Positions 38,767 to 41,938 of a stretch of DNA of 45,139 bases are shown one piece after another. The position numbers and the translations under genes were made by a program. The DNA comes from a virus (Duplodnaviria; Heunggongvirae; Uroviricota; Caudoviricetes). The stretch lies in the IMG/VR virus record IMGVR_UViG_2713897161_000005. One strand, written 5' to 3'. Numbering within the stretch: the first letter of the stretch is position 1; every line of letters starts with the position of its first letter. The notes beneath the pieces were generated by a model, which was not told the origin of the DNA, ran no database searches, and saw nothing but the letters and a program-made list of their open reading frames with translations.

Positions 38767-39045
38767 TCAGGCCTCGAAGAATTCGCCGTTCTTCGGGGCT
38801 TTTTCTTTTGTCAGCATTCTGGCTACTTTCTTAGCCAGTTCCGCCAACTCCTCGTCTTCAACACCCCACTCAAGAACAGCCAGAAGCATTCCCATTTTGG
38901 GGATGAAGCTGTCTTTCCATCGCGAAATTTGCGATTCATTAATCCCTAACGCGTCGGCAACCTTTCGCTGACCACGTACAGCAATTCGATTCAGGATGTT
39001 GCTTGTAATTGCATTCGCTTTCTTGCGAGTACTTGTAAGTTCCAT
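38767..39045 (-). CDS. cII: Transcriptional activator CII
   Basis: 92 aa from ATG 39045: ...[34 protein letters not shown]... matches lambda CII; the track's longer start would include nutR. Confidence 0.75.
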
Positions 39046-39078
39046 ATGTAAGTATTTCCTTAACAAATAAGAAGTTAT

Positions 39079-39096
39079 GCGCATCAACTTATGCGC
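39079..39096 (-). terminator. Hairpin between nutR and cII (tR1 position)
   Basis: 6-bp stem GCGCAU/AUGCGC with 6-nt loop, followed by moderately U-rich sequence; position analogous to lambda tR1. Confidence 0.3.
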
Positions 39097-39103
39097 GTTG
39101 TAT

Positions 39104-39146
39104 TCCCGCATTTCGGCGGGAATGAGGACCATGACTGTTAAAGAGC
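39104..39146 (-). promoter_or_regulatory. nutR (boxA GCTCTTTAACA + boxB hairpin)
   Basis: Minus strand: boxA at 39136-39146, 7 nt after the cro stop; boxB UCCCGC-CGAAAU-GCGGGA at 39104-39121. Both elements identical to those in the PL leader. Confidence 0.65.
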
Positions 39147-39153
39147 AATTTGC

Positions 39154-39339
39154 TTATGCCGCTTTGCGGTAAGCGCTTTCTTGATACTTCAGGGCGCCAG
39201 CTGTAACGACTTCCAGTCGATAGGCGTCTTTCTCTGGGATGACTTCCTTCCACTGAGAGACTGCTGCGTCGCTAATGCCTAACGCTTTAGCTACAGCACG
39301 CTGGGTTCCGAAGTGGTCGATAACATCTTTCTTGTACAT
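39154..39339 (-). CDS. cro: Cro-like repressor (HTH)
   Basis: 61 aa; HTH-like GTQRAVAKALGISDAAVSQW; divergent from cI. Confidence 0.7.
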   Translation of the reverse strand: MYKKDVIDHFGTQRAVAKALGISDAAVSQWKEVIPEKDAYRLEVVTAGALKYQESAYRKAA

Positions 39340-39363
39340 AGACTCGCTCCGAAATTAAAGAAC

Positions 39364-39419
39364 ACTTAAATTATCCACTAAAGGAATCTTAAGTCAAGTT
39401 TATTTAAGATGTCTTAACT
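39364..39419. promoter_or_regulatory. OR/PR/PRM region between cro and cI
   Basis: TTAA-centred operator-like motifs (ACTTAAAT 39364-71, TCTTAAGT 39387-94, ATTTAAGA 39402-09, TCTTAACT 39412-19); PR candidate on minus strand TTGACT (39392-97), 16 bp, GATAAT (39370-75). Confidence 0.5.
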
Positions 39420-40070
39420 ATGAAAACTCAATTGATGGGAGAGCGCATTCGCGCTCGGAGAAAAGAACTCAAGATCAGACAGGCCGCACTTGGAAAGATG
39501 GTCGGCGTGTCTAATGTTGCCATATCTCAGTGGGAACGCTCTGAGACAGAGCCAAATGGAGAGAATCTTCTCGCCCTGGCTAATGCGTTGAAGTGTTCCC
39601 CTGACTATCTGATGAAAGGAGAGGAAAGTCTTTCAAACATTGCCTATCACAGTAGGCATGATCCAAGAGGGTCATACCCTCTGATTAGCTGGGTGAGCGC
39701 AGGATGCTGGATGGAAGCTGTAGAACCATATCATAAGCGTGCAATAGATAACTGGTACGATACAACCGTAGACTGTTCAGAAGATTCGTTTTGGTTGGAC
39801 GTGAAGGGAGACTCAATGACGGCTCCGGCCGGTCTCAGTATCCCTGAAGGAATGATAATACTCGTAGATCCTGAAGTAGAGCCGCGTAACGGGAAACTGG
39901 TAGTTGCAAAGCTCGAAGGAGAAAACGAGGCAACTTTCAAGAAGTTAGTTATTGATGCAGGCAGGAAGTTTCTAAAACCACTTAACCCACAATATCCGAT
40001 GATCGAGATCAACGGAAACTGCAAAATCATCGGCGTAGTTGTCGATGCAAAACTAGCAAACCTTCCATAA
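39420..40070 (+). CDS. cI: CI-type prophage repressor (HTH + S24 LexA-like peptidase domain)
   Basis: 216 aa; N-terminal HTH (IRQAALGKMVGVSNVAISQWER); C-terminal ...GDSMTAP... serine-peptidase-like region; divergent from cro. Confidence 0.8.
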   Translation: MKTQLMGERIRARRKELKIRQAALGKMVGVSNVAISQWERSETEPNGENLLALANALKCSPDYLMKGEESLSNIAYHSRHDPRGSYPLISWVSAGCWMEAVEPYHKRAIDNWYDTTVDCSEDSFWLDVKGDSMTAPAGLSIPEGMIILVDPEVEPRNGKLVVAKLEGENEATFKKLVIDAGRKFLKPLNPQYPMIEINGNCKIIGVVVDAKLANLP

Positions 40071-40093
40071 GGGGGCATTCGCCCCTTTTTTTT
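40071..40093 (+). terminator. Intrinsic terminator immediately after cI
   Basis: GGGGGC-AUUC-GCCCC hairpin followed by T8. Confidence 0.6.
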
Positions 40094-40117
40094 ATTTCCC
40101 TTAAAAATCAAAGCCAA

Positions 40118-40194
40118 ACTTAAGTTACGAAAGAAAATTTAAGTTTTCTTCAAAAATACTCTTGACCATTAATTAAAGAGATCTTAAATTTAAG
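40118..40194 (+). promoter_or_regulatory. OL/PL region
   Basis: Operator-like palindromes ACTTAAGT (40118-25), ATTTAAGT (40137-44), CTTAAATTTAAG (40183-94); PL candidate TTGACC (40162-67), 17 bp, TAAATT (40185-90). Confidence 0.5.
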
Positions 40195-40236
40195 CCATCA
40201 GCAGGACGCTGGTAGCCAAACGGAACAGATTGGCAG

Positions 40237-40277
40237 GCTCTTTAACATTGATGGGATTGTCCCGCCGAAATGCGGGA
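40237..40277 (+). promoter_or_regulatory. nutL (boxA GCTCTTTAACA + boxB hairpin)
   Basis: boxA at 40237-40247, 12-nt spacer, boxB UCCCGCCGAAAUGCGGGA at 40260-40277; identical to the nutR copies. Confidence 0.65.
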
Positions 40278-40635
40278 ACTGAGTTTAACCAAACAGGAGG
40301 TGCCGTAATGGTGCACTAACGCGGTTAGACCGCAGCCGAAAGGCAATGCAGCAGTAATGATGCTGCCCCGAGTCGCGTAATGGCGAGCAGGTTTAGCAGA
40401 CCGATGTGAGGGTAAATAAGGGAACATGCTCCGGAAAGGCAGCGCGAATGCCAGACGCGCACCGGTTATCAGCGGCTAATAAGCGACAGAGGCTCAAGGG
40501 CATGAGCGCGCTCACTGCGAGAGTGTGAGTCAAAGAGTAGTTGGCTTTGGGGTAACGTGAAGTGCAGCTGCACGACGGCAACCGGAAGATAAGCACCCGG
40601 CGCGTCACCGCCAAAGTCAATCATCGGAGGTCAAC

Positions 40636-40935
40636 ATGACAGTAGTCATTACATATCTGGCTGACGATAACGCCAGAAATCGCCGCAGAGCACGCAGACA
40701 GGCTCAACGTGAACAGGCAATGCAAGAGCAGCGACTGGCGCGAAAAATTGCGCTAAAGCTCTCTGGTTGCGTCAGAGCAGATAAAGCAGCATCACTCGGA
40801 AGCCTTCGCTGCAAGAAGGCAGAAGAAGTCGAGCGTAAACAGAACCGTATTTACTACCGCAAGCCACGCAGTGAAATGGGTGTGACTTGTGTTGGTCGCC
40901 AGAAAATGAAATTAGGCAGCAAACCACTTATTTGA
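40636..40935 (+). CDS. N: Antiterminator N
   Basis: 99 aa; arginine-rich motif NARNRRRARRQAQ near the N-terminus; C-terminus ...YYRKPRSEMGVTCVGRQKMKLGSKPLI parallels lambda N; GGAGG RBS. Confidence 0.75.
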   Translation: MTVVITYLADDNARNRRRARRQAQREQAMQEQRLARKIALKLSGCVRADKAASLGSLRCKKAEEVERKQNRIYYRKPRSEMGVTCVGRQKMKLGSKPLI

Positions 40936-40943
40936 GGTGAGAT

Positions 40944-41414
40944 ATGACAAAATCATGGAGCGTACCTTTTCCTGAATCAGAAACTGAACATGATGGAATG
41001 CCTGTTTTCTGGAGATTCCAGGCGACAGTTGAAGAAGATGGGATAAAAATATTCGCACTTCAATATATAGCTTTTCATCAGACAGAGCATTATGCATGGT
41101 TGGTTCCTGCGCATTGGATTATTGATTATAAACCAGCACCAAATCAGTGGTTACGGGAATGGAAACAAAGGAGAAATAGATATGCAATTAAGAAAGTAGC
41201 AAAAAATGCAGAAAGATCTTTTGCATTCCCAACAAAGAAACTTGCCATTGAGAGTTTATTGCGCCGGAAGAAATACCATTTAATGAGAATCAAACAAGAT
41301 TTGGCTGTTGTATCAACTCTTGTCGATGGGATGAAGAATATTGATACATCAACACCAGATATTGAATATAACTTTGGACACAACCAAGAAACAGAAAATT
41401 GGGTATTCTACTAG
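40944..41414 (+). CDS. Hypothetical accessory protein (156 aa), AT-rich, immediately after N
   Basis: GAGGTGAG RBS; followed directly by an intrinsic terminator; no recognisable motif. Confidence 0.45.
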   Translation: MTKSWSVPFPESETEHDGMPVFWRFQATVEEDGIKIFALQYIAFHQTEHYAWLVPAHWIIDYKPAPNQWLREWKQRRNRYAIKKVAKNAERSFAFPTKKLAIESLLRRKKYHLMRIKQDLAVVSTLVDGMKNIDTSTPDIEYNFGHNQETENWVFY

Positions 41415-41438
41415 GCCGCATAGTCGGCCTTTATTTTT
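41413..41438 (+). terminator. Intrinsic terminator (tL1 position) after the 156-aa ORF
   Basis: AGGCCG-CAUAGU-CGGCCU hairpin followed by UUAUUUUU. Confidence 0.55.
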
Positions 41439-41804: not shown

Positions 41805-41938
41805 GCACTGTGTATTCATTCCAACGAGTGAATACACGGAGCAATGTCGCTCGTAACTAAACAGGAGTCGACTTGTTCTGATTATTGGAAATCTTCTTTG
41901 CCCTCCAGTGTGAGGGCAATTTTTTTGATGGAGGATAT

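Follow-up and report, generated by a model that had tools for sequence, protein, structure and literature searches.

HK620-type nut sites around the immunity region of a P22-like Escherichia coli phage, and a structured RNA inserted behind nutL

Described N systems and the layout of the locus

Among the described N/nut systems, that of HK620 (GenBank AF335538) is the nearest to the sites considered here, which belong to a window of 45,139 nucleotides (the whole stretch of viral DNA analysed; IMG/VR record IMGVR_UViG_2713897161_000005). At either site, the window has the same boxA, spacer, and boxB as HK620, and as HK630, HK140, mEpX2, CUS-3, N7, and IME10, and the HK620 record annotates these sequences as "nutL; putative N-utilization leftward" and "nutR". 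The N protein of the window also holds the same arginine-rich motif (ARM) as that of HK620, which places the window in the HK620-type nut/N group. Being annotated in a well-known phage, these nut sites are already known, and their recognition in the window is a correct but ordinary finding. The two phages exhibit clear differences elsewhere. The C-terminus of N is of the phage 21/lambda type in the window (99 aa), whereas it is of the P22/H-19B type in HK620 (90 aa); the immunity module of the window is P22-like, with 1156 bp between nutL and nutR compared to about 1700 in HK620; and a 251-nt RNA element that follows the nutL boxB in the window is not present in HK620.

Phage 21 shares with the window the boxA 11-mer, the PL leader, a hexaloop of the form pyrimidine-4 nt-pyrimidine, and N residues 35–99, which are phage 21/lambda-like and almost identical to those of phage 21 N. 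However, its loop is CUAACC instead of CGAAAU, its ARM is GTAKSRYKARRAELIAERR instead of DDNARNRRRARRQAQREQAM, and its nutL and nutR stems are unlike each other, whereas the two stems of the window are identical. The resemblance to the P22 gene 24 protein and nutR boxB (CCGCC-GACAA-CGCGG) lies in the upper stem CCGC/GCGG, in a pyrimidine–pyrimidine pair closing the GA(C)AA loop, and in the ARM frame NA[KR]xRRxxRR, although in P22 the loop has five nucleotides, one of them an extruded C (PDB 1A4T, PMC12550061), in contrast to the plain GAAA of the window. With lambda, the window has in common the gene order, the succession of boxA and boxB, the N-terminal ARM, and a C-terminal region (residues 62–99 of the window N) that aligns with lambda N residues 74–110 of PDB 6GOV. 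Lambda differs in its boxA (CGCUCUUA), in a boxB with a 5-bp stem and a GAAAA/GAAGA pentaloop, and in its spacers of 8–9 nt.

The window belongs to a P22-like phage of E. coli, and N7, CUS-3, and IME10 are 99% identical to it over the immunity region. The genes are arranged in the order cII - nutR - cro - PR/OR - cI - PL - nutL - N, with the following features:

38767–39045, minus strand: cII/c1 activator, 92 aa from the ATG at 39045 (HK620 cII is likewise 279 nt)
39062–39096, minus strand: tR1 candidate, hairpin GCGCAU-AAGUUG-AUGCGC (39096–39079) with a U-rich tail, a prediction from folding only
39146–39104, minus strand: nutR, in the PR transcript, 3' flank of cro
39136–39146, minus strand: nutR boxA GCUCUUUAACA, beginning 7 nt past the cro stop codon
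39122–39135, minus strand: nutR spacer, 14 nt, GUCAUGGUCCUCAU
39104–39121, minus strand: nutR boxB hairpin, same sequence as the nutL boxB
39154–39339, minus strand: cro, which opens the PR operon and is so named in the records of N7, CUS-3, and P22
39370–39397, minus strand: PR promoter (-35 TTGACT, -10 GATAAT), from a promoter scan
39420–40070, plus strand: cI/c2 repressor (LexA-like), the immunity module between the two nut sites
40069–40088, plus strand: intrinsic terminator of the repressor gene
40162–40190, plus strand: PL promoter (-35 TTGACC, -10 TAAATT), from a promoter scan
40237–40277, plus strand: nutL, in the PL leader, upstream of N
40237–40247, plus strand: nutL boxA GCUCUUUAACA, where NusB/NusE are predicted to bind, near +41 of the PL transcript
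40248–40259, plus strand: nutL spacer, 12 nt, UUGAUGGGAUUG, identical in about 100 related loci
40260–40277, plus strand: nutL boxB UCCCGC-CGAAAU-GCGGGA, to which the N ARM is predicted to bind, part of the annotated HK620 nutL
40278–40635, plus strand: N leader, 358 nt
40636–40935, plus strand: N antiterminator gene, 99 aa
41413–41430, plus strand: tL candidate, hairpin resembling a terminator, past N in the PL operon, a pattern match only
41898–41919, plus strand: second terminator-like hairpin of the PL operon, a pattern match only

Both repeated elements occur in exactly two copies in the 45-kb window: the hairpin 18-mer TCCCGCCGAAATGCGGGA at 40260–40277 (plus) and 39104–39121 (minus), and the boxA 11-mer GCTCTTTAACA at 40237–40247 (plus) and 39136–39146 (minus). 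Allowing up to two mismatches brings up no further copy of the 18-mer in the window, and 100 dinucleotide shuffles produced no match. On both transcribed strands, boxA is followed by a spacer of 12 nt (nutL) or 14 nt (nutR) and then by the hairpin, a gap that lies within the range of about 8–15 nt of lambdoid nut sites. One copy is located in the PL leader ahead of N, the other immediately past cro in the PR transcript, both behind predicted promoters. The start of the PL transcript has been placed near 40197, by homology to the A annotated as the pL start of phage 21, so nutL would extend from about +41 to +81. The claim of a sequence-only reading of this DNA, that nutL and nutR share identical boxA and boxB elements in the same order and at similar spacing, is thus borne out by the exact-match scans, and their identity as nut sites agrees with their lambdoid position, order, orientation, and gene context, in addition to the HK620 annotation. 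These sequences, their positions, and their identity to the annotated sites are established directly.

The N gene downstream of nutL encodes an N-terminal ARM, DDNARNRRRARRQAQREQAM, at residues 10–29 (40663–40722), recognizable from its alignment with the ARMs of lambda, P22, and phage 21. Compared to HK620 N, there is one difference in the first 64 residues, which falls outside the ARM. The Pfam N_peptide model scores the window N at 20.2 bits, under the cut-off of 27.9, while HK620 N passes at 58.4. The alignment of N and the nut sites with those of lambda, P22, and phage 21, proposed by the earlier reading as a check, gives comparable boxBs with different loops and a single ARM frame, A-x-x-R-[RY]-x-x-R-R, common to all four proteins. 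It is in the second, C-terminal half of the helix that the four ARMs differ, with Ala/Met in the window at the position of lambda Trp18.

Taken together, nutL and nutR are very probably the cognate sites of an N antitermination system of the HK620 type. The PL and PR transcripts would each carry boxA and then boxB. By analogy with lambda, the host NusB/NusE (S10) pair would bind the boxA, which is identical to that of rrn, and the boxB hairpin would be the target of the arginine-rich helix at the N-terminus of N (residues about 10–29). The lambda/phage 21-like C-terminus of N, together with NusA and NusG, would then make RNA polymerase resistant to termination. The modified enzyme is expected to pass tR1 into cII and the replication genes, with cII/c1 as the first gene predicted to depend on read-through beyond nutR/tR1, and to pass the tL terminators, for which 41413–41430 and 41898–41919 are candidates, into the early-left operon. 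The binding, the use of Nus factors, the fold of the loop, and the identity of the overridden terminators are what we infer for this system. The candidate terminators past the nut sites, at 39096–39079 (minus), 41413–41430 (plus), and 41898–41919 (plus), come from pattern scans and folding only. The first of them is located between nutR and cII; HK620 annotates tR1 just after nutR, and the P22 hairpin is of the same type.

The distribution of these sites is broad. A 52-nt stretch comprising nutL is found in 26 phage records, among them several Stx phages as well as HK620, HK630, HK140, mEpX2, CUS-3, and N7. It recurs in IMG/VR, where at least 120 contigs have it, and in 498 of 5426 complete E. 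coli genomes (about 9%). No biochemical work on the HK620-type ARM-boxB pair, either on binding or on antitermination, was found in the searchable full-text literature, so that this pair seems to be common yet biochemically unstudied. No nut or boxB family of Rfam matched in a search of the whole window at the gathering threshold. The nut sites by themselves matter little, as those of a P22-like phage with a textbook N/Nus switch and HK620 specificity.

BoxA and the boxB loop

The boxA of ribosomal RNA operons is the other described element to which the window can be compared. Antitermination in rrn operons is independent of N, and their boxB-like hairpin lies upstream of boxA, unlike in nut sites. 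The rrn boxA sequence was checked directly in E. coli genomes, where each genome has seven copies of the leader sequence TGCTCTTTAACAA, lying about 143 nt ahead of the 16S rRNA. The window boxA is identical to this leader boxA (T-GCTCTTTAACA-A; GCUCUUUAACA) at 11 of 11 positions, and the description of the boxA as rrn-like therefore holds. This likeness is not special, because the 11-mer is also present at both phage 21 nut sites and, nearly so, in P22.

With regard to boxB, the fold of the 18-mer (-9.7 kcal/mol, z = -2.9) agrees with the 6-bp stem and 6-nt loop that had been read from the sequence. At nutR, the stem can be extended in the fold to 8 bp through two flanking A-U/U-A pairs. The boxB copies are all identical but four, three of which are nutR copies with a terminal A to G change only. 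The fourth, a nutR variant (L050), keeps the loop unchanged and replaces a stem G-C by A-U, with one mismatch in addition, and is the single compensatory case. Due to this near invariance, the stem is almost without covariation support. The boxBs with which it can be compared are the following:

lambda nutL: GCCCU-GAAGA-AGGGC
lambda nutR: GCCCU-GAAAA-AGGGC
P22 nutL: GCGCU-GACAA-AGCGC
P22 nutR: CCGC-C-GACAA-C-GCGG
window, aligned to P22 nutR: CCGC-C-GAAA-U-GCGG

As judged from this comparison, the window boxB corresponds to the P22 nutR boxB minus the extruded C, with C·U replacing the C·C closing pair. Structures of two of the related complexes have been described: P22 forms a pentaloop with an extruded C (PDB 1A4T), and the CUAACC hexaloop of phage 21 (PDB 1NYB) adopts a GNRA-like fold of UAAC between a C-C pair (PMC12550061). 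The layout C[GAAA]U of the window equals the C[UAAC]C of phage 21, a pyrimidine on either side of four nucleotides. The hexaloop is thus probably a true GNRA tetraloop, GAAA, closed by a C·U pair, and a variant of the GNRA theme. The earlier reading had set this boxB apart from the GNRA-like pentaloop of lambda; the loop does have six nucleotides and not five, but the opposition to GNRA-like loops probably does not hold in view of the P22 nutR comparison and the published phage 21 structure.

The loop CGAAAU does not fit the sequence pattern of the lambda/P22 pentaloop class, in which one base of a GNR(N)A or GN(N)RA loop is extruded, though the window boxB may work like the members of that class. 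Neither does it belong to the phage 21 hexaloop class, defined by the loop CUAACC and the phage 21 ARM, from which the window differs in both loop and ARM. Three elements would confer the specificity of the window boxB: the pair that closes the loop, the stem, and, on the protein side, the distal half of the ARM helix. Should its loop indeed be a GNRA tetraloop with C·U as closing pair, the HK620-type boxB would represent a fourth solution to N-boxB recognition. It would also be a useful natural test of how far boxB recognition is plain GNRA recognition, and would bear on the need for an extruded loop base at the NusA step.

Association of boxB and ARM types, and other readings of the repeats

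The PL leader is the same in the window and in phage 21 up to boxA, while ARM and boxB both differ: DDNARNRRRARRQAQREQAM is paired with UCCCGC-CGAAAU-GCGGGA in the window, and GTAKSRYKARRAELIAERR with UCUCAAC-CUAACC-GUUGAGA in phage 21. The association between both elements was followed in two surveys. The first covered the IMG/VR loci holding the window boxB, with the N genes read where readable. Among the matches listed, all readable N genes encode an ARM of the NARNRRRARR type or a close variant, the most divergent being SDTAKNRRRERRAALRDQA, and they carry at least three unrelated C-termini (types of 99, 90, and 101 aa). The same listed matches include 90 nutL-nutR pairs, which fall into about nine distance classes from 1152 to 2990 bp, and different immunity modules must therefore be inserted between the same pair of nut sites.

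The second survey was a scan for the common leader plus boxA, TTGGCAGGCTCTTTAACA, irrespective of what follows. The window boxB was found in 102 loci, where the readable N genes all encode the window ARM (15 loci have none readable), and the phage 21 boxB is accompanied by the phage 21 ARM in 27 of 27 loci. Another two loci hold a third boxB, GGGGAUGAUUCGUCCCC, together with a third ARM, KAREIRKLERARKHKEATAKRK. Two further matches of the leader scan, L134 and L144 on T4-like contigs, were discarded as chance matches within a structural gene. In both surveys, the boxB type matches the ARM type, and no mixed combination was observed in either of them (about 100 loci with the window boxB and 27 with that of phage 21). 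This co-segregation is, like the positions of the sites, directly established.

Part of the co-segregation is plain linkage, because nutL and N are adjacent. The matching of nutR across unrelated immunity modules is the stronger argument for selection on the cognate pair. The suggestion that the window represents a different N specificity class gains support from this strict co-segregation, set against the boxB and ARM that phage 21 holds on the same leader, and the comparison of loci supports treating the window boxB and N as a class of their own. Specificity would reside in the ARM-boxB pair, which appears to be swapped among phages as a matched set, whatever the C-terminus of N or the immunity module. 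The window nut sites offer a clean natural example of such a matched exchange on a constant scaffold.

A narrower view accepts the sites as real nut sites but takes their specificity to be that of P22 or lambda, with cross-reaction and no separate class. The ARM frame A-x-x-R-R-x-x-R-R, common to lambda and P22, would fit such a view, as would a boxB that equals the P22 nutR boxB less one loop base, and the lambda N peptide is reported to tolerate deletion of the extruded loop base. However, few positions agree in the C-terminal half of the ARM helix, where lambda Trp18 has no equivalent, and mixed ARM/boxB combinations are absent from both surveys, which makes a shared specificity unlikely. 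The repeats have also to be considered as module-boundary sequences, kept by homologous recombination between mosaic lambdoid genomes and not by their use by N. CUS-3 indeed annotates the interval between cI and N as 'bsq5; boundary sequence', and the PL leader up to boxA is common to phages with different boxB types. Recombination at a boundary, however, has no need of an identical hairpin flanking unrelated immunity modules and leaves the perfect match between boxB type and ARM type unexplained, so that this origin is very improbable as an alternative to N use; a boundary role and a nut role are, on the other hand, not mutually exclusive.

Finally, GC-rich perfect inverted repeats flanking an immunity region could be intrinsic terminators, or DNA sites bound by a protein in the manner of operators. 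Neither copy is followed by a U-tract, the downstream sequences being ACUGAGUU and AUACAACG, and neither hairpin was picked by the terminator scan. Both are oriented with the transcripts and preceded by boxA, which speaks against either function, and the operators lie elsewhere, adjoining PL and PR. Such a role has hardly any likelihood, and the HK620-type nut function remains the preferred reading of the two sites.

A structured RNA inserted behind the nutL boxB

Compared to HK620, N7, and CUS-3, the N leader of the window holds an insertion, located between GGGAAC and CAAAGAG, with these features:

40280–40530, plus strand: insertion of 251 nt in the N leader, beginning 2 nt after the nutL boxB and outside the nut site
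40295–40300, plus strand: strong Shine-Dalgarno sequence of the insertion
40308–40319, plus strand: mini-ORF of three codons, ATG GTG CAC TAA

The remainder of the insertion, of roughly 215 nt, is a conserved structured RNA. The element is 77–99% identical in mEp213, Stx2c phages, Hafnia phage yong1, the Klebsiella phages RothC/D, and a Providencia phage, and it is without annotation in all those records. At least 120 contigs of IMG/VR contain it, as do 113 of 5426 E. coli genomes. A genome scan with the core motif (17 specified bases in 596 Gb) gave mostly chance matches, as expected, and 36 loci confirmed by nhmmer were kept; these belong to Enterobacterales, except for two matches, one of them partial and from a Shewanella assembly, the other from an assembly that bears the label Vagococcus. 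Searches of Rfam 15 with the leader and four related loci found no match to the element, including those at E<=10 or E<=1, and literature searches with sequence strings of the element and keywords found nothing relevant.

The structure was modelled from an alignment of 46 copies, no two of which reach 90% similarity. The model comprises 45 base pairs in 11 helices, with 94.2% of cells paired, compared to 27–39% when the 3' partners are slid. Twenty-five pairs are changed on both sides, among the pairs of the model there is a long-range one that 25 sequences form as C-G and 17 as U-A, and none of 500 shuffles reached any of the observed measures. Moreover, G·U pairs outnumber A·C pairs (124 vs 54), and the sense strand is therefore favoured. 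The element is a widespread, covariation-supported structured RNA and may be a mobile module. An upstream mini-ORF starting with ATG is found in 81 of 107 distinct copies, 60 of these 81 with a Shine-Dalgarno-like sequence before it. It usually has three codons, its length being kept and its peptide not, and its stop usually ends 1–2 nt before helix 1. A group I intron was dropped on the reading of the boundaries, as the 5' flank is without a terminal U and the insert without a terminal G.

There are good grounds to regard the element as a candidate new structured RNA of phages, and we consider the chances evenly balanced that it constitutes an undescribed class made by N- or Q-modified RNA polymerase in lytic growth. 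Being conserved and placed exactly where antiterminated transcription begins, it could matter more than the nut sites next to it. Its orientation is always sense to its operon, and its contexts include the interval between the CI repressor and N, positions just after Q-type antiterminators and before tRNAs or holin, and positions after an Rz-like spanin. Other Enterobacterales phages also have it immediately past a point at which antitermination is loaded: in Hafnia phage yong1, it lies right after a different nutL boxB with a GAGA loop, and in Klebsiella phage RothC, it follows Q and a tR'-like terminator.

An RNA element behind nutL

The leader of N carries a 251-nt insertion that begins 2 nt 3' of the nutL boxB and is missing from HK620, N7, and CUS-3, the phages used for comparison. 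Its features in the window are the following:

40280–40530, +, 251-nt insertion
40295–40300, +, Shine-Dalgarno sequence AGGAGG, inside the insertion
40308–40319, +, 3-codon mini-ORF ATG GTG CAC TAA, inside the insertion

The RNA part of this insertion comprises about 215 nt and folds into 11 helices with covariation support. The helix model is 94.2% paired, compared with 27–39% in slid controls, and both sides have changed in 25 of its pairs; 0 of 500 shuffles attained any of the observed measures. The insertion has no match in Rfam, and the element is never annotated. It is present in at least 120 IMG/VR contigs and in many prophages of Enterobacterales; of 5426 E. coli genomes, 113 carry it. 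It is always in the sense orientation relative to the operon, and is located in the cI–N interval, 3' of Q, or 3' of the Rz-like spanin. The sole match in the window at the Rfam gathering threshold is a tRNA gene (1009–1080, +).

Phage mEp213 has two N genes in tandem (373–705 and 1858–2130 of its locus L156). A degenerate boxB (CCCTCCGAAATGCGGG) and the structured RNA element lie upstream of the second gene, which resembles the N of HK620.

Natural variants and other classes of boxB

The only informative natural variant of boxB is found in the nutR of L050, one of the compared loci, located about 1.16 kb from its nutL. This hairpin (CUCCCAC-CGAAAU-GUCGGAG) retains the loop unchanged, and its stem bears a single G-C to A-U replacement plus one C·C mismatch; the N protein of L050 holds a variant arginine-rich motif (ARM), DDNARNRRRARRALQRKQAM. 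L096 is a degenerate prophage: its nutR boxB breaks off within the hairpin (TCCCGCCG|TGAACC...), and its N gene has a frameshift 3' of the ARM.

Further ARM/boxB classes were found on the same type of PL-leader scaffold:

L145 ~3569 and L149 ~10790 (two compared loci), boxB GGGGAUGAUUCGUCCCC with an N starting VKAREIRKLERARKHKEATAKRK
Hafnia phage yong1 (locus L157, 1456–1497), boxA GCTCTTTAAAA and boxB GUAUGCC-GAGA-GGUGUAC with ARM NAKQRCKLRRLERRSEER

The loop of the yong1 boxB is a GNRA tetraloop, GAGA.

nutR boxA and the start of cII

In the predicted fold of the PR transcript, the nutR boxA (UCUUUAACAG) pairs with UUGUUAAGGA, the Shine-Dalgarno region of cII:

39144–39135 with 39066–39057, -, predicted pairing of 10 bp, including 2 G·U

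Both segments have the same sequence in all copies. This predicted pairing could link the translation of cII to the occupancy of boxA, or it could be due to chance. Regarding the start of cII, the CUS-3 and N7 records place it at an upstream ATG corresponding to 39132 (-), which falls within the nutR spacer. The more plausible start is the one at 39045 (-), which matches HK620 and P22 and gives a protein of 92 aa.
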